Origin: an uncultured Defluviitaleaceae bacterium
GTDB lineage: Bacteria; Bacillota; Clostridia; Lachnospirales; WRBF01
NCBI GenBank assembly: GCA_964492715.1
Contig: CAZBLK010000001.1
Span: 68,143 to 132,142 of the forward strand
DNA: 64,000 nucleotides
Reading direction: 5' to 3'
The translations under genes and the position numbers were made by a program. Under the pieces are notes generated by a model. The model had not been told where the DNA came from. It saw only the letters and a program-made list of their open reading frames with translations, and searched no databases. Below, piece by piece: positions 1-6,727 of the stretch. Positions within the stretch are counted from its first letter, which is position 1, and each line of letters opens with the position of its first letter.

Positions 1-183
1 GTTTACAAAAGCCCAGTTTGGGTTTCTTTTTATAAACTCGCTGTAATATTCAATTTGGTTTTTAAGCGAGTTTGCTTGCTCGTCTTTTTCTGTTGAAACT
101 CTGGCATAAAATGTTACACGCAGCGGTAGCTCGTAAATTGATTTGCCGTTGTTTAGCTGCTGGCGAATGTTGTATAAGTCCAT
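1..183 (-). CDS. large serine recombinase, N-terminal 61 codons only (gene continues past the left edge)
   Basis: Not in the ORF track because it is truncated by the window. Manual minus-strand translation from ATG at 183 gives MDLYNIRQQLNNGKSIYELPLRVTFYARVSTEKDEQANSLKNQIEYYSEFIKRNPNWAFVN. YARVST is the catalytic-serine motif of the resolvase/invertase domain, and this N-terminal layout is typical of large serine recombinases of Firmicutes elements. Confidence 0.8.
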   Translation of the reverse strand, partial: MDLYNIRQQLNNGKSIYELPLRVTFYARVSTEKDEQANSLKNQIEYYSEFIKRNPNWAFVN

Positions 184-281
184 AAAAACACCTTTGTTTT
201 TTATTTAATAAACTGGTGTTTACATTTTATGAATAAATGTATATGATTATGATTATAAGGAATTGTATAAGGAGGGGAAAG

Positions 282-1085
282 ATGGAAGGTTGTGATTTGT
301 TCGACGAAAACAGGCAGACGTATGGGAATAATTGGAACAATGATTTTAACAGTTGGAAGGAAATTGAACAGCTAAACTTTTTGGGTTGGGATTTTTCGGA
401 AATTGATGGGCTTATAGAGTATGAAGAATTAGCTTGGGATTACAAAAATATTGTTAAACAATATATTAAGCCTCAGCATAAGCTGCTTGACATGGGTACA
501 GGTGGGGGCGAGTTTCTATTAACACTAAACCACCCGCATGAAAACACGTGCGTGACAGAAGCATGGGTGCCAAACGTTCAGCTTTGTAATGAACGGCTTG
601 CGCCGCTTGGAATAACTGTTAAGCAAGTTTTTGACGATAATGTATTGCCTTATGACGACAACACTTTTGACATTATAATAAACCGCCACGAAGCATTTAG
701 CGTAAAAGAGATACGCCGAATTTTAAAGCCTGGCGGTGTTTTTATTACACAGCAAATTGGGGGCAAAAACAATGAGTGGCTTTCAAAGTATATGGATATT
801 GATTTTAAGGCAAACTTCCCAAACCATTCACTAGGAAACAATGTTGCAGAATTAGAAGATAATGGCTTTGATGTATTATATGAACAAGAAAGTTACCCTT
901 ACATACGATTTAATGATGTTAAAGCAATTGTTTATTATGCAAAAAACATTCCTTGGGAATTTAAAGAGTTTTCAGTTGAAAGATGTTTTAATAGGCTTTT
1001 GGAACTTAAAAATATTATTATGAAAAATGGATACGTGGAAAGCCTTGGGCATAGGTTTATTATTGTTTCTAAATGTGTAAAGTAA
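282..1085 (+). CDS. class I SAM-dependent methyltransferase
   Basis: Motif I LLDMGTGGGEF and later ILKPGGVF. RBS aaggagggg at 269-277 favours the ATG at 282 over 237. Confidence 0.8.
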   Translation: MEGCDLFDENRQTYGNNWNNDFNSWKEIEQLNFLGWDFSEIDGLIEYEELAWDYKNIVKQYIKPQHKLLDMGTGGGEFLLTLNHPHENTCVTEAWVPNVQLCNERLAPLGITVKQVFDDNVLPYDDNTFDIIINRHEAFSVKEIRRILKPGGVFITQQIGGKNNEWLSKYMDIDFKANFPNHSLGNNVAELEDNGFDVLYEQESYPYIRFNDVKAIVYYAKNIPWEFKEFSVERCFNRLLELKNIIMKNGYVESLGHRFIIVSKCVK

Positions 1086-1100
1086 AATAGGATAAGCTCT

Positions 1101-1140
1101 AAGGCTTCCGAAAGCAAATTGCTCAGGAAGCCTTTTTTTA
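1101..1140 (+). terminator. intrinsic terminator after the methyltransferase gene
   Basis: Stem aaggcttcc (1101-1109) pairs with ggaagcctt (1126-1134), followed by a T-run. Confidence 0.7.
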
Positions 1141-1148
1141 TTCATTAA

Positions 1149-1883
1149 TTAATTGCTTCTAGTCCGTGAAATAAAAATATTCTCAATAAAAGAAATTACC
1201 CAGTAAAGCATTAGGCCAACAATGCCCAAAACTAAAATGCCTGTATACATGTCAACATATTTAAACATAGTCCACGAGTTCATTACGTAATAGCCCATGC
1301 CGTACCTTGTTCCAAACGACTCGGCAAAAAAAAGAACAGAAAAAGACGTAGCAAGCCCTATGCGGATTGATGTAAAAATTTGGGGCAGGGCAGAGGGTAA
1401 ATAAATGTGAATTAGCTTGTCAAAAAATTTTGCACCGATAATATTAAACTGTGTTATGTACTCAACAGGCAAGTTTTTCATCGTGTCACGCAAAGCGACT
1501 GTCACTTGAAACACCATTATTAAAAAAATAATAAAAACTTTTGATGCGTCACCAATTCCAAAAGCAAGCATTATTATCGGCAAAAATGCAATTTTGGGAA
1601 TTGGGCTTAAAAGGTAAACAATTGGCGAAAGAACATAGTCCAAAAGCTTTACTGTATGCAAAGCTATGCCAAGCGAAATTCCAACAAACAATGCAAGCGA
1701 AATGCCAGCAAAAATTCTTCCTAAACTATACAAAACGTGCAAATAAATTTGGTTAGTTCTAGTGTTTAGCAAAACTGCAAAAACCGAAACAGGCTTTGGA
1801 AGAATTGCATTGTTTACAACAACAGCACATACTTGCCAAACAACCAACAAAATAATTACTCCGTATAATTTTTGGTGTTTCAT
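1149..1883 (-). CDS. ABC transporter permease (NitT/TauT-type)
   Basis: Multi-pass membrane protein with a BPD-transporter-like core. The ATG at 1883 follows gtgagg; the ATPase TGA stop (1892-1894) overlaps the alternative GTG start at 1895. Confidence 0.8.
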   Translation of the reverse strand: MKHQKLYGVIILLVVWQVCAVVVNNAILPKPVSVFAVLLNTRTNQIYLHVLYSLGRIFAGISLALFVGISLGIALHTVKLLDYVLSPIVYLLSPIPKIAFLPIIMLAFGIGDASKVFIIFLIMVFQVTVALRDTMKNLPVEYITQFNIIGAKFFDKLIHIYLPSALPQIFTSIRIGLATSFSVLFFAESFGTRYGMGYYVMNSWTMFKYVDMYTGILVLGIVGLMLYWVISFIENIFISRTRSN

Positions 1884-1891
1884 ATAAAACC

Positions 1892-2482
1892 TCACAACTT
1901 AATAATTACATCACTTAAAAGCTTTGCTTCTTCTGGGTTGTGCGTAACAAGCAATGTAGTTATGTTTCTTTCTTCCTGTAGTTTTTTAAACAATGAATAT
2001 ATACTTTCTTTTGTGGAAACATCAAGGGCGGAAAAAGGCTCGTCCAAAAGCAAAAGGTCTGGCTCGTAAAACAAAACGGAAGCTAGAGCAACACGTTGGT
2101 ACTGCCCACCGCTAAGCTTGCTAGGGTACTTTTTAACCAAGCTGTTGTCAAGCTCTAGTTCTTCTAAAAGCTTTAGTGCAGACTCTTTGCACACCTTTTT
2201 TTCTTTTATTTTTTTAAGAAGCATTACATTTTGCAGCACGGTTTTCCATGGCAGTAGCGAGTTTTTTTGTGGCATTAGCATAATTCTTGTAAAGCTTTTG
2301 TTTTTTATTTGCCCTTCGTAGTCTGTATGCACTCCAGCGATAATTTTTAAAAGAGTGCTTTTTCCACAGCCCGACTTTCCTAGCAAAGATATTACATTTC
2401 CTTTTTGTATATCCATGCTAAAGTCTTGAAGAACTTTTTCTTCGTATCCTTTATAAAATGCGTATTTTAAATTAATTTTCAT
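1892..2482 (-). CDS. ABC transporter ATP-binding protein (short, 196 aa)
   Basis: Walker A GKSGCGKST, signature LSGGQYQR, Walker B LLLLDEP, H-loop LVTHN. Confidence 0.9.
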   Translation of the reverse strand: MKINLKYAFYKGYEEKVLQDFSMDIQKGNVISLLGKSGCGKSTLLKIIAGVHTDYEGQIKNKSFTRIMLMPQKNSLLPWKTVLQNVMLLKKIKEKKVCKESALKLLEELELDNSLVKKYPSKLSGGQYQRVALASVLFYEPDLLLLDEPFSALDVSTKESIYSLFKKLQEERNITTLLVTHNPEEAKLLSDVIIKL

Positions 2483-2520
2483 CTATGCACATTAATGCTT
2501 TTTAAAAGCAGTTCCTCCAA

Positions 2521-2550
2521 TTTATGCTTGTCTACTTTATGCTTGTCCAC
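2521..2550. repeat. 15-nt tandem direct repeat x2 immediately 5' of the ATPase RBS
   Basis: tttatgcttgtctac / tttatgcttgtccac (plus strand), with one mismatch. The RBS complement tcctcc lies at 2513-2518. Confidence 0.85.
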
Positions 2551-2561
2551 TTTCGCAGTAT

Positions 2562-2750
2562 TTAATTATGTATACTTTCAGAATATTTGTCAATTGCTTT
2601 TTTGGCCTCTTTAAGTATAGAGTTTGTTGCACCAGTATACATTTCTTCGGTAATAATGCCTTTTTCGTAAAGACGTTTGTTTATTAAAAGCTTAATTTCG
2701 GTAGAAACCCTTTGCAGACAAGCTTCTTTTGCGGTAATGGTCATGTGCAT
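2562..2750 (-). CDS. small hypothetical protein with a SHOCT-like GIITEEMY motif
   Basis: ORF inside the ABC operon with RBS gaggtg before MHMTIT. LYEKGIITEEMY resembles the SHOCT short C-terminal motif. Function unknown. Confidence 0.4.
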   Translation of the reverse strand: MHMTITAKEACLQRVSTEIKLLINKRLYEKGIITEEMYTGATNSILKEAKKAIDKYSESIHN

Positions 2751-2804
2751 CACCTCAATATATTTTATGCCAGTTTGCAAAAGGTTAATACAGTTTTATT
2801 TATA

Positions 2805-2842
2805 GCAAAAAGGCATCTAGCTCCATTGGAAGTAGATACCTT
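2805..2842 (-). terminator. intra-operon hairpin plus U-tract after the binding-protein gene
   Basis: On the minus strand: aaggtatctacttccaatggagctagatgcctt followed by ttttt. Probably an attenuator or mRNA-stability element between the SBP gene and the downstream genes. Confidence 0.5.
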
Positions 2843-2853
2843 AAAATTTATGT

Positions 2854-3744
2854 TTACTTAACTTCCGCAGAAATATCAGAAAGTGAATATTCTTTTGTTA
2901 CTAAGCCTTTGTCTAAAAGCCAAGCGTTAGCTTTTTTTACATCATCTTCTGTTGGCATAGTTTTCTTTTCGTAAACAGGAAGCGCAAATTCAACTTCTGG
3001 GAAGCCCATTTGCTCAATTAAAATTGGCTTTAGTTCTTCATAGCTTGCGCTGTTTATGTAATCCACAGCTTTGTCGTATGCTTCGTAAAGCTCTTTGACG
3101 TAAGCTTTCTTTTTGTCTATAGAATCCTTTGAAAGAAGTACAATACCAGCACTTGTTTCAGTGTCGATTTTAAGTTCTACTGCGCCGCTTGCAACTGCAA
3201 TTGTACCAAAAGGCTCTGGAAGTGTTGCGCCGTCAAGCTTGTTGTTAACAAGCATTTCAAGGCGTAAAGGAATTAATGGCACTGCTGTTTTTTCAGCTTC
3301 AACGCCTGCTTCGCCAAGAATTGTGTCAGTAATATATTCAATAATTGTGTTGCTGGAAATGCCAATTGACTTTCCTTGCATTTGTGAAATTTCAGTAACG
3401 CCTGAATCTTTTCCAGCAACCATAACAAAGTATCCGTTTGTTTTTGAAGTTAAAACGCCGTCAAAGTCGTTTTCTTTTGCCATCATTACAGAAAGCAAGT
3501 CTGAAGTAGAGCCGTCAATGTTTTTACTAAACAATGCGCTGTCACGGTCGGCTGCGCTTTTAAAAAGCTCAAGCTCAACATTTTCGCCTAAAAAGCCTTT
3601 TTCTTTTGCAACGAAAAATGGAATAGAGTCAAGGTTTGTCATTACGCCAAGCTTCAATTTTTCAGGATTTTTTGCACAGCCCGAAAGAAGCATTGTCGCA
3701 CCAATGCCTAAAATAAGTAATTTTTTAAAAATAGATTTTTTCAT
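2854..3744 (-). CDS. ABC transporter substrate-binding lipoprotein (NMT1/THI5-TauA-like)
   Basis: Signal peptide with lipobox LLSGC. PBP type II-like sequence. The start ATG overlaps the ubiX stop (ATGA). Confidence 0.8.
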   Translation of the reverse strand: MKKSIFKKLLILGIGATMLLSGCAKNPEKLKLGVMTNLDSIPFFVAKEKGFLGENVELELFKSAADRDSALFSKNIDGSTSDLLSVMMAKENDFDGVLTSKTNGYFVMVAGKDSGVTEISQMQGKSIGISSNTIIEYITDTILGEAGVEAEKTAVPLIPLRLEMLVNNKLDGATLPEPFGTIAVASGAVELKIDTETSAGIVLLSKDSIDKKKAYVKELYEAYDKAVDYINSASYEELKPILIEQMGFPEVEFALPVYEKKTMPTEDDVKKANAWLLDKGLVTKEYSLSDISAEVK

Positions 3745-4325
3745 AGCTGTCCCCATTCTTTGTATAGTTCATTTTGAAACCCAAACATATTTAAAATTCT
3801 GCCAACACTTTCCCAAACCAAATCGTCAATAGTTTGCGGACGGTTATAAAACGACGGTATAAGCGGCACAATTTGTGCGCCTGCTTCACACAGATTAAGC
3901 AAATTTTTTAAATGGTTTTTGTTTAGTGGTGTTTCACGTGGGCAAACAACAAGCTTTCTGCCTTCTTTTAGGCAAACGTCTGCTGCCCTTGTTAAAACTG
4001 TGTCACCTATGCCGGCAGAAATTTTGCCGACTGTTGCCATAGAACACGGCGCAATAATCATACCAAGTGTTTGAAAAGAGCCGCTTGCAATAGAAACAAA
4101 CATGTTGTCGTTTTTGTGTATTATAACATTTTTAGCACAAGCTATGGTTTCAAAAGGTTTGCCACGCTCGTACTGAAAAACTTGTCTTCCATTATCTGTA
4201 ATAACAATGTGAAGCTCAATTTCATTTAACAAATGTTCATTTGTTAAATGGTTAACGATTTTTTCTGAATAAATGCTGCCACTTGCGCCTGTTATTCCTA
4301 AAATAATTCTTTTTACATTTTCCAC
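3741..4325 (-). CDS. ubiX: UbiX/Pad1-family flavin prenyltransferase (prFMN synthase)
   Basis: N-terminal ILGITGASGSIY flavoprotein motif, 194 aa, adjacent to ubiD and ubiA homologues. Confidence 0.9.
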   Translation of the reverse strand: MENVKRIILGITGASGSIYSEKIVNHLTNEHLLNEIELHIVITDNGRQVFQYERGKPFETIACAKNVIIHKNDNMFVSIASGSFQTLGMIIAPCSMATVGKISAGIGDTVLTRAADVCLKEGRKLVVCPRETPLNKNHLKNLLNLCEAGAQIVPLIPSFYNRPQTIDDLVWESVGRILNMFGFQNELYKEWGQL

Positions 4326-5191
4326 AAAAAATAATCTCCCAAAGTAAAAACGATAAAAACTATACTAATAATTTGATTAATAGTATATGACGCTATTATG
4401 TACTTGTTTTTTATTAAAAGCCTGTCATTTCTTGGTGCAATTATTATATGTTCAATTAAAAGCAAACTACAAATTATTGCAACACCAATTAAATATACAT
4501 AATGAAGCTTTAAAACAAAATACAAAACTCCAAGCATAAAAACAACAGCAGCATGTAAAAGTGCCGAGATTATGTGTGCGCCTTTTCTTCCAAAGCGGCG
4601 TGGCACAGAGTAAAGCCCTTCCTTTGTGTCAAACTCAATGTCTTGAATTGCATAAATAATGTCAAAGCCGGCAACCCAGCATGTTACAATTGCGGCAAGC
4701 AAAAAAGCTGTAAACGATGGCTTTCCGGTAACGGCAAGCCATGCACCCATAGGCGCACCGCCGCAAGCCATTCCAAGAATTAAATGACAAAAGTAAGTGA
4801 ACCTCTTTGAGTACGAATAAACAAAAAATATTGCAATTGCAACAGGCAAAAGGACAAGGCATGTTATGTTCAGCATAAAAGCCGAAACTGCCATAAGCAC
4901 AAATGAGCCTATAGTCAAAGCCCAAGCTTCAAAAACGCCAACTTTCCCTGTTGGAATGTGCCGCCCTGCTGTACGAGGGTTTTTTTTGTCAATGTCCTTG
5001 TCGATAACACGGTTTAGTGCATTTGCGCCTGTTCTTGCCGAAACAAGCGCAAGAAGTATCCAAAAAAAGATGGAAAGCTTTGGCATACCTCCGCTTGCCA
5101 AAACCATAGAGGTCAAGCCAAAAGGCAGTGAAAAAAGCGTGTGGGAAAACATTACAAGCTCCCCAAGGTTTGTTACCTTTTTAAATACCAT
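4313..5191 (-). CDS. UbiA-family aromatic prenyltransferase (4-hydroxybenzoate polyprenyltransferase-like)
   Basis: NRVIDKDIDKKNPRTAGRHIP Asp-rich motif and a multi-TM protein. RBS aaaggtgg favours start MVFKKV at 5191. Confidence 0.85.
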   Translation of the reverse strand: MVFKKVTNLGELVMFSHTLFSLPFGLTSMVLASGGMPKLSIFFWILLALVSARTGANALNRVIDKDIDKKNPRTAGRHIPTGKVGVFEAWALTIGSFVLMAVSAFMLNITCLVLLPVAIAIFFVYSYSKRFTYFCHLILGMACGGAPMGAWLAVTGKPSFTAFLLAAIVTCWVAGFDIIYAIQDIEFDTKEGLYSVPRRFGRKGAHIISALLHAAVVFMLGVLYFVLKLHYVYLIGVAIICSLLLIEHIIIAPRNDRLLIKNKYIIASYTINQIISIVFIVFTLGDYFLWKM

Positions 5192-6617
5192 ACGACTTCC
5201 ACCTTTTTGAAACAAGCTGTTTAATGTCATTTGACATTACAATGTCGTCAGGCCATTCTCTGTCGTGTCCTTCTGTCTTCCACTTTTTAGTTGCGTCAAT
5301 ACCTAGCCTTGTTCCAAAATGTGGCGTGCTTGAAGCGTGGTCTAGTGCATCAAGGACACCTTCGGAAAGGACTAAATCTCTTTTTGCGTCAATGTTGTTG
5401 AACACTTTCCAAGCTACTGTCGATACGTCGTGTGGGTTTACGTCTTTGTCTACAACAATAATCATTTTTGTGTACATCATTTGACCGTATCCCCAAAGAG
5501 TGTTCATAATTTTTTTTGCATGAAGCGGGTAACGCTTGTCTATGCTTACAATTACACAGTTGTGGAACACGCCTTCAAGAGGGAAGTTCATGTCAATTAT
5601 TTCTGGGGCAATAAGCTGCAAAAGCGGAAGGAAAATTCTTTCCGTAGCTTTACCCAAAAAGCAGTCTTCCATTGGGGGCTTGCCGACAATTGTTGACATG
5701 TAAATTGGGTTTTTGCGCCGTGTAATTGTTTTTACATGGAAAACAGGGTAGTCGTCTGTTAAAGAATAATACCCGGTGTGGTCGCCGAAAGGACCTTCTT
5801 TTCGCAATTCCCCAATTTCAACGTAGCCTTCAAGAACAAATTCACTGTTTGCCGGAACATAAATGTCGTTTGTCACACTTTTAACAAGCTTAACAGGCGA
5901 GTTTCTCAAAAAACCTGCAAACATCATTTCATCAATAATTTTTGGCAGCGGTGCAGTTGCGGCATAAATTGTTGCTGGGTCGCAGCCGATTGCAACAGAA
6001 ACAGGCATTCGCTTGCCAATCTTTTTGTACTTTTCATAAATTTCTCGTCCGTCTTTGTGCAAATGCCAGTGCATTCCTGTTGTATTTTTGTCATACACTT
6101 GCATTCTGTACATGCCAACGTTTTGTGTTCCTGTTTCTGGGTCTTTTGTAAACACCAATGGCAAAGTTATAAACTTTCCGCCGTCATCAGGCCAGCATTG
6201 CATTATCGGAAGCTTTGTTAAGTCTGCCTTTTCGATAACTTCTTGAGCAGGAGCGTTTTTAACTTTAATTGGAATTACGTTAATCATGCTTAACAAGTCG
6301 GGTACCATTTTAAAGGCGTTTGGAATTGGCAAATACTGTTTTAAATCTATAAGCTTACGTATTCTTGCAGCTATGTCGTCTAAGCTTTGCACCTCTAAAG
6401 CAAGGTTAAGCCGTTTTGTAGAGCCAAACGTGTTTATCAAAAGCGGAAACTCCGAACCTTTTACATTGTGAAACAAAAGCGCTTCGCCGTGGCGCTTTGA
6501 AACTCTGTCTGTAATTTCTGTAATTTCCAGCACAGGGTCAACCTCTGTAGTTATGTGCTTAATTTGCTTGTTTTTTTCAAGCACTTTAATAAAAGAACGA
6601 ATATCTTTGTATGCCAT
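5181..6617 (-). CDS. ubiD: UbiD-family prFMN-dependent decarboxylase
   Basis: Full-length similarity to UbiD (EITEITDR, LLFHNVKG, GPFGDHTGYY). Confidence 0.9.
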   Translation of the reverse strand: MAYKDIRSFIKVLEKNKQIKHITTEVDPVLEITEITDRVSKRHGEALLFHNVKGSEFPLLINTFGSTKRLNLALEVQSLDDIAARIRKLIDLKQYLPIPNAFKMVPDLLSMINVIPIKVKNAPAQEVIEKADLTKLPIMQCWPDDGGKFITLPLVFTKDPETGTQNVGMYRMQVYDKNTTGMHWHLHKDGREIYEKYKKIGKRMPVSVAIGCDPATIYAATAPLPKIIDEMMFAGFLRNSPVKLVKSVTNDIYVPANSEFVLEGYVEIGELRKEGPFGDHTGYYSLTDDYPVFHVKTITRRKNPIYMSTIVGKPPMEDCFLGKATERIFLPLLQLIAPEIIDMNFPLEGVFHNCVIVSIDKRYPLHAKKIMNTLWGYGQMMYTKMIIVVDKDVNPHDVSTVAWKVFNNIDAKRDLVLSEGVLDALDHASSTPHFGTRLGIDATKKWKTEGHDREWPDDIVMSNDIKQLVSKRWKSYGI

Positions 6618-6635
6618 TTCATTACCTCCGTTAAT

Positions 6636-6664
6636 ATTATGAATATGTTATATAATTTTGTCAA
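6636..6664 (-). promoter_or_regulatory. candidate sigma-A promoter of the ubiD operon
   Basis: Minus strand TTGACA (6664-6659), 17 nt spacer, CATAAT (6641-6636). It would give a very short leader ending at the ggaggt RBS. Confidence 0.35.
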
Positions 6665-6727
6665 TTGAAATTAATTTACAACATAGCGAACAGGGTAGGT
6701 GTGACTGAGAATTGTAGAACAGTGTTG

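Follow-up and report, generated by a model that had tools for sequence, protein, structure and literature searches.

The 64-kb stretch of DNA analysed in this study, in the following called the window, begins inside a gene for a large serine recombinase (LSR) that is read leftwards from an ATG codon at position 183. The start codon is preceded by an AAAGGTG ribosome-binding site, and the 61 codons located within the window (183..1, minus strand) are translated to MDLYNIRQQLNNGKSIYELPLRVTFYARVSTEKDEQANSLKNQIEYYSEFIKRNPNWAFVN. These codons contain the motif LRVTFYARVSTEKDEQANSLKNQ. An earlier reading of the window from its letters alone (the sequence-only reading) had described 61 codons with a catalytic-serine motif, and both are present. 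The 61-residue stub matched the Pfam Resolvase family with E=1.7e-4 and 22.2 bits, slightly missing the cutoff of 23.3 bits. The remainder of the gene was obtained from the Logan contig SRR10912415_21309 (L001, 13,924 bp), which was found via the neighbouring methyltransferase. This contig is identical to window positions 1-8157 (100% identity, 0 mismatches) and reaches 5.8 kb to the left of the window; window position x corresponds to L001 x+5767. Look-ups with the LSR (P0121) and with SpoIVA (P0001) led to the same 13.9-kb Logan contig only.

The full gene (L001 4316-5950, minus strand) encodes 544 amino acids, and its stop codon lies 1,451 nt left of the window edge (L001 4316 = window -1451). 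Three domains were detected in the protein: Resolvase (PF00239, 1.8e-31, residues 25-171), Recombinase (PF07508, 2.2e-23) and Zn_ribbon_recom (PF13408, 3.6e-6). Judged by its sequence, the protein has the length and the domain set typical of large serine recombinases (about 450-700 aa). The enzyme class and the length of ~500-550 aa that had been predicted from the stub were thus borne out on L001. The gene is also neither truncated nor degenerate, a case which the sequence-only reading had allowed for: the reading frame is complete, and all residues invariant in an alignment of 16 LSR homologues are kept, including R28 and S30 of YARVS. In this enzyme class a coiled-coil motif inserted in the zinc-ribbon domain controls directionality; in the window LSR, residues of about 400-480 look charged and heptad-like when inspected by eye. 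Both NCBI and Logan sources contain an identical 544-aa protein (P0121). The nearest solved relative of the catalytic domain is 3G13, a "putative conjugative transposon recombinase" (E=1.5e-39); TnpX likewise matches the LSR. No second LSR gene was found within the 64-kb window. Window positions 1-183 are very probably the start of an intact 544-aa LSR that is part of an element splitting spoIVA.

Upstream of the LSR gene lies a set of cargo genes. A class I SAM methyltransferase of 267 aa (282..1085, plus strand) is the only gene encoded on the opposite strand. It is followed on the minus strand by an ABC transporter permease (1149-1883) and ATPase (1892-2482), by a small conserved gene encoding 60 aa (2562..2744) with the core EIKLLINKRLYEKGIITEEMY, which is a candidate for a recombination directionality factor, and by an operon for an NMT1-type substrate-binding protein, a UbiX flavoprotein, a UbiA prenyltransferase and a UbiD decarboxylase (2854..6617). 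The UbiD-UbiA-UbiX operon is preceded by a sigma-70-like promoter (6664-6636). The combination of UbiD-UbiA-UbiX with an ABC importer is an unusual load for a gene-intervening element, and the gene for the candidate excision factor is placed amid the transporter genes. A hairpin with 28-nt arms (89% complementary) and a 6-nt loop is located at 6746..6807 (L001 12513-12574). It is likely a terminator, predicted to insulate the cargo from transcription reading through from spoIVA.

The hairpin lies just inside attL, the junction of the element with spoIVA. The open reading frame at 6728-8071 (minus strand) encodes the SpoIVA_ATPase and SpoIVA_middle domains and lacks SpoIVA_C. Homology to the full-length 492-aa SpoIVA proteins P0002 and P0003 stops at ...ASAPSIH, residue 402 (window 6842); beyond this residue the frame runs on as IECNKQKCFN... 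into the element and ends with a stop codon at 6728. The spoIVA 5' fragment thus comprises codons 1-402 by homology (6842..8071, minus strand). It is 84% identical to the intact homologue P0002 across these 402 residues and contains no frameshift. LSR and spoIVA are co-oriented, and the distance between ATG 183 and the break is 6.66 kb, which agrees with the break at 6.6 kb that the sequence-only reading had reported. A comparison of the surroundings with a relative carrying an intact spoIVA (P0003) showed differing neighbours and nothing informative. The gene itself is a listed sigma-E target (PMC5025042, PMC3416734).

The attL junction (6815..6860, minus strand) consists of spoIVA ...TCAATACAT joined to the element sequence ATTGAGTGTAACAAACAGAAGTG. 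It contains the shared core ATACAT(AT) at 6847-6840 and the conserved arm GTAACAAACAGAAGT at 6834-6820, both on the minus strand. This attL copy is the sole copy of the arm within the window. Among the 120 closest SpoIVA homologues, 35 (about 29%; own count) are devoid of SpoIVA_C, their lengths clustering at 410-460 aa. Several homologues break at the same residue with a similar continuation, xCxKQKC, which indicates a recurrent element end.

Relatives of the recombinase and their junctions with spoIVA

In order to survey the relatives of the LSR, the 16 aligned homologues were followed by a scan of one genome per GTDB species, which yielded 80 loci (L009-L088). The genome of the window itself is outside the scanned GTDB representatives, the best LSR match among which is 62-63% identical. 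Using tblastn with SpoIVA, spoIVA fragments were found in 53 of the 80 loci. In 47 loci a co-oriented spoIVA 3' fragment (residues about 399-492) begins no more than 150 nt from the 3' end of the LSR gene; all but one of these 47 remain open at least as far as residue 486. Both halves of spoIVA are present in 13 loci, the two being co-oriented and 5.05-10.3 kb apart, with the 5' fragment (residues 1-402/404) upstream. The canonical layout was seen in 31 of the 41 homologues with at least 53% identity. Carriers include Ruminiclostridium papyrosolvens, R. sufflavum, Pseudoflavonifractor, Flavonifractor and many Oscillospiraceae, furthermore Defluviitaleaceae, Anaerovorax, a "Firmicutes CAG:822" lineage and some Bacilli. 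Canonical elements occur in cultured strains, among them R. papyrosolvens C7 or DSM 2782 (L009, element of 6.3 kb) and Pseudoflavonifractor capillosus An827.

The junctions of canonical members, a spoIVA-targeting LSR clade defined here from L009-L050, share one anatomy. At attR the LSR reading frame ends with ...RKNTSVCxxQYI, reading through the arm ACTTCTGTTTGT into spoIVA ATACATATGAT. The spoIVA sequence at attR is ...CAATACATATGAT (IHMIRADIETE), and the LSR stop codon is located inside it. The family attL consists of ...TCAATACAT joined directly to AT-N4-8-(G/T)(A/T)ACAAACAGAAGTG, an inverted copy of the attR arm. In one relative the site is empty and has the sequence TCAATACATCTTATTAGG (GCACCTTCAATACATCTTATTAGGGCAGAT). 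The window break fits this picture. Its arm is the inverted form of the family arm, its attL agrees with the attL of 20 other loci, and positions 6847-6820 correspond to the family form ...ATACAT AT N4-8 (G/T)(A/T)ACAAACAGAAG at spoIVA codon 402-404. On this comparison the window LSR belongs to the element that breaks spoIVA, since 47 of the 80 homologous loci abut a 3' fragment and the local break bears the family arm; the link between LSR and spoIVA break proposed by the sequence-only reading is thereby upheld. The open 3' fragments in 46 of 47 loci, together with a local 5' fragment free of frameshifts, argue for selection on both halves of spoIVA. The split gene would accordingly still be in use, and its use would require rejoining.

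A second set of junctions was observed in spoIVA 9 codons downstream of the first. Its attL follows ...DIETEV (L003-L008), and its attR side is found at ...TEVSPI in L070, L081, L084 and L086. The LSRs of these four loci and of L060 are 44-48% identical to the window LSR, and their reading frames run to the C-terminus of SpoIVA (...GGLICIIL). The cargo beside L003-L008 looks defence-like, with AAA_14/DUF4143 ATPases, CHAT, ParE/Phd and a 1589-aa helicase. In a Defluviitaleaceae MAG (L016, 877-3718) the element is reversed: the 3' end of its LSR gene borders on the broken end of a spoIVA 5' fragment lying on the opposite strand. With a palindromic central dinucleotide (AT or TA within ATACATAT), integration either way would be possible.

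When the open reading frames of 17 elements were clustered, only one small frame besides the LSR was common, occurring in 15 of them. The small gene lies on the same strand as the LSR gene in every case and in many cases immediately precedes it. The proteins of this family have a size of ~48 aa and the core E(V/I)KLxINxxL(F/Y)EKGxITEEMYxKAKxxI(I/L)K. Searches against Pfam, PHROGs and NCBIfam gave no significant match, with SHOCT or GvpG-like hits below threshold only. Library-wide, phmmer found 17 more representatives. Homologues were also located immediately upstream of LSRs in the IMG/VR loci L094, L102, L103, L119 and L120, which are classed as viral and whose LSRs are 39-56% identical to the window LSR. 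No spoIVA fragments were found in the IMG/VR loci of LSR relatives, and IMG/VR does not contain the exact junction sequence. Since small gene and LSR are paired in these contigs without spoIVA, they look like a portable module. By analogy with CD1234, SprB and GirX (PMC5025042, PMC5499854, PMC5595907), we propose that the ~48-aa protein acts as a recombination directionality factor (RDF).

Of 12 elements, 9 have a KCATA motif ahead of the small gene, compared with a background of 19%, these loci being related and not independent. The motif resembles the sigE/sigK -10 consensus quoted in PMC3416734, which hints at a putative -10 region of this type before the small gene. In the window KCATA is too near the start codon of the small gene to convince.

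The far end of the window element

The canonical attR is missing from the end of the window LSR. Its protein follows the family up to ...RLRK and then terminates with VFIERV, the divergence covering the last 7 codons after codon 537. This altered C-terminus could impair the enzyme. The arm ACTTCTGTTTGT is absent from the LSR 3' end, and searches of the window and of the 5.8 kb to its left turned up no second copy. Using tblastn with SpoIVA residues 396-492, no match was obtained in L001 or the 64-kb window, including the 4.3 kb downstream of the LSR. Directly past the LSR stop codon lies a terminator with a 17-bp stem (L001 4316-4280), followed by a near-consensus, sigma-70-like promoter, TTGACA-17-TATTAT (L001 4265-4237), an M28 peptidase gene and an ABC-2 transporter. 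A spoIVA 3' fragment or att site next to the LSR 3' end, as anticipated by the sequence-only reading, is hence not there; the peptidase and transporter genes are found instead. The same reading had placed the other end of the element 1.5-2 kb beyond the window and had estimated a size of 8.5-9 kb. The LSR stop codon at 1,451 nt is close to this position, and the canonical layout would give 8.3 kb, with relatives at 5.05-10.3 kb, but neither attR nor 3' fragment marks an element end at this point.

Further searches of the region were made. Repeat, composition and blastn analyses left of the LSR gave nothing diagnostic, and a metagenome scan with the M28 peptidase for its usual neighbours returned one irrelevant match of 28%. 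The sequence GTTTTTATTGAG at the LSR end was considered as a degenerate arm or as kin of ATTGAG beside attL and was rejected, a match of 6-7 bases being too short to be distinguished from chance. A protein search with the C-terminus of SpoIVA (P0002 residues 402-492) revealed no 3' fragment traceable to the genome of the window. It did return hundreds of free-standing SpoIVA_C proteins of 91/97 aa from other organisms; the best Logan match, P0242, came from a different sample and lies beside a different LSR. This search was word-indexed, scored 1,147 candidates and listed neither P0002 nor P0003, both of which contain the query. Since it omitted the source protein of its own query, the absence of a 3' fragment from its results is weak evidence.

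Layouts in which LSR and 3' fragment are not adjacent were observed in other loci. In L052, 4.5 kb with Fic, phosphoesterase and DUF4417 genes separate the LSR from the spoIVA 3' fragment. In L037 the LSR ends at a vestigial arm, and the true arm with the 3' fragment follows after another 1.07 kb. L021, from the Clostridia MAG HGM11521 (4083-18903), combines the 5' part of spoIVA with the small gene and with an LSR that is 57% identical to that of the window. The tail of the L021 LSR is without arm, no 3' fragment occurs within 7.2 kb, and agrB, a histidine kinase and a LytTR regulator are encoded downstream.

The reading that we prefer is that DNA was captured between LSR and attR, which would make the LSR gene internal to an element of more than 12.6 kb. 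We regard this as evenly balanced between right and wrong. The layouts of L052 and L037 fit it. So does the position of the breakpoint at the outer edge of the arm, the sole site at which an insertion spares LSR, attR and spoIVA. The intact state of the LSR, the small gene and the 402 spoIVA codons is consistent with it as well.

A possible though rather doubtful alternative is an immobilised remnant. Here a deletion would have taken the final codons of the LSR gene together with the attR arm and the spoIVA 3' fragment, and perhaps further DNA, fusing the LSR to unrelated sequence; spoIVA would be permanently truncated and the lineage asporogenous or becoming so. This would account for arm and 3' fragment missing both from the 4.3 kb past the LSR and from the window, and for an LSR stop codon followed at once by a terminator and by the promoter of an ordinary-looking M28 peptidase gene. 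The similar pattern in L021, with neither arm nor 3' fragment within 7.2 kb, points the same way, as does the protein search that gave no 3' fragment of this genome; that search, however, was demonstrably incomplete. Moreover, nothing would make a random deletion stop precisely at the outer edge of the arm and leave all but 7 LSR codons in place. With LSR, small gene and 402 spoIVA codons intact, the deletion would also have to be recent.

Proposed excision and comparison with known elements

For canonical members we propose the following sequence of events, by analogy with skin, SPbeta, gin and skinCd. During sporulation, LSR and small protein would act on attL and attR in the mother cell and recombine the two sites. 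The 5-10 kb element would leave as a circle, and codons 402 and 403 would be rejoined to encode the full-length 492-aa SpoIVA. The chromosome of the forespore would retain the element. Taken as a whole, our reading is a tentative one, held at somewhat less than even confidence: spoIVA is split in a sizeable share of Clostridia by LSR elements of 5-10 kb that form a family not described before, a new directionality factor of ~48 aa helps to excise them in the mother cell in time for the expression of a sigma-E-dependent gene, and the window copy is a derived one whose recombinase became internal after DNA was captured beside attR.

Programmed rejoining would be absent if the elements used a highly conserved stretch of spoIVA merely as an integration site and thereby inactivated the gene; LSR elements often target conserved genes. 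Several of the carriers are gut Oscillospiraceae, and two members of this group have been called non-spore-forming (bioRxiv 10.1101/2022.02.25.481979). Such a use of spoIVA as a safe harbour is nevertheless unlikely. The 3' fragments in 46 of 47 loci and all observed 5' fragments are open and conserved across families, which is unexpected for a dead gene. Ruminiclostridium papyrosolvens, which we take to be a spore-former, is among the carriers. The LSR is also accompanied by a conserved small partner gene, as it is by RDF genes in skinCd, SPbeta and gin (PMC5025042, PMC5499854, PMC5595907).

It is highly improbable that the LSR belongs to a separate element with its own att sites and lies near the spoIVA break by coincidence, a case which the sequence-only reading had named and which is now largely refuted: no spoIVA sequence adjoins the LSR 3' end here, but the clade is specifically tied to spoIVA (47 of 80 loci), the local break bears the arm of the clade, orientation, 8.3 kb spacing and the small gene in between all match the family layout, and the window holds no other LSR. 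An assembly artefact, that is, a chimeric join after LSR codon 537, can likewise be given very little credit, for although the extension stems from a metagenome-style contig, the 544-aa protein with its divergent tail is on record from NCBI and Logan in three contigs, the contig was seen in two samples, and no repeat at the breakpoint is long enough for a mis-join.

Sporulation genes split by intervening elements are known in several cases, namely skin/sigK, SPbeta/spsM, vfbin/spoVFB, vrin/spoVR, gin/gerE and yin/yabG (PMC4191935, PMC5595907, PMC5025042, PMC10747680). A 2022 survey of sporulation genes reported 15 skin elements, in which the recombinase gene was always at the element edge and usually just upstream of the 3' fragment; a split spoIVA is not mentioned in it. 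No description of an element interrupting spoIVA was found in the open-access full texts that were searched. The phenomenon of gene intervention is already known; the split of spoIVA would be a previously undescribed case.

The closest parallels are skin with SpoIVCA in Bacillus subtilis sigK and skinCd with CD1231 in C. difficile, where an LSR element likewise splits a mother-cell sporulation gene. Excision of skinCd is controlled by the small RDF CD1234 (PMC5025042), to which the candidate small protein would be the counterpart. From element to element, the cargo is otherwise unrelated. The spoIVA family differs from both in hitting spoIVA instead of sigK, in its size of 5-10 kb without phage genes, in an LSR reading frame that crosses attR into the target gene, and in a small partner that matches none of the three profile collections searched; in the window, furthermore, the 3' fragment is not beside the LSR. 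The gin element of Bacillus cereus gerE, with GirC and GirX, resembles the spoIVA element in being non-phage and in its cargo of metabolic or defence type; it is excised by a serine recombinase together with an accessory factor (PMC5595907), as is proposed for the spoIVA element. In contrast to the window element with its one LSR and its target spoIVA, gin is 28.6 kb long, carries three recombinase genes and interrupts gerE.

LSRs of TnpX/TndX-type transposons provided the best sequence match among solved structures, through the catalytic domain 3G13. Enzymes of this type move antibiotic-resistance or conjugative transposons with a looser choice of target, whereas the clade of the window LSR is tied to one spoIVA site. 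In SPbeta (SprA/SprB, spsM), vfbin, vrin and yin, a split sporulation gene is precisely rejoined by an LSR, and, as in the canonical spoIVA family, attL and attR share a short core and bear inverted arms (PMC4191935, PMC5499854, PMC10747680). These four are, however, prophages or prophage-like and have other target genes; spoIVA is not named as a target in the papers found.

Split spoIVA seems to be common in metagenomes, as indicated by the ~35 of 120 SpoIVA homologues without C-terminus and by the hundreds of SpoIVA_C proteins of 91/97 aa. The split gene is annotated as an ordinary "stage IV sporulation protein A". Should a widespread spoIVA element be real, many SpoIVA proteins annotated as "truncated" would be accounted for, as would the free-standing SpoIVA_C mini-proteins of gut and termite-gut genomes, and split spoIVA would have to be weighed in genome-based predictions of sporulation capacity. 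The family would also provide well-populated natural triples of LSR, att site and candidate RDF with a defined target of 40-50 bp, which would be useful in recombinase engineering. For the biology of the carriers, the element would constitute a recombination switch in spore assembly, at a checkpoint that precedes those of the other known cases, and the atypical junction of the window would give insight into the growth or decay of elements of this kind.
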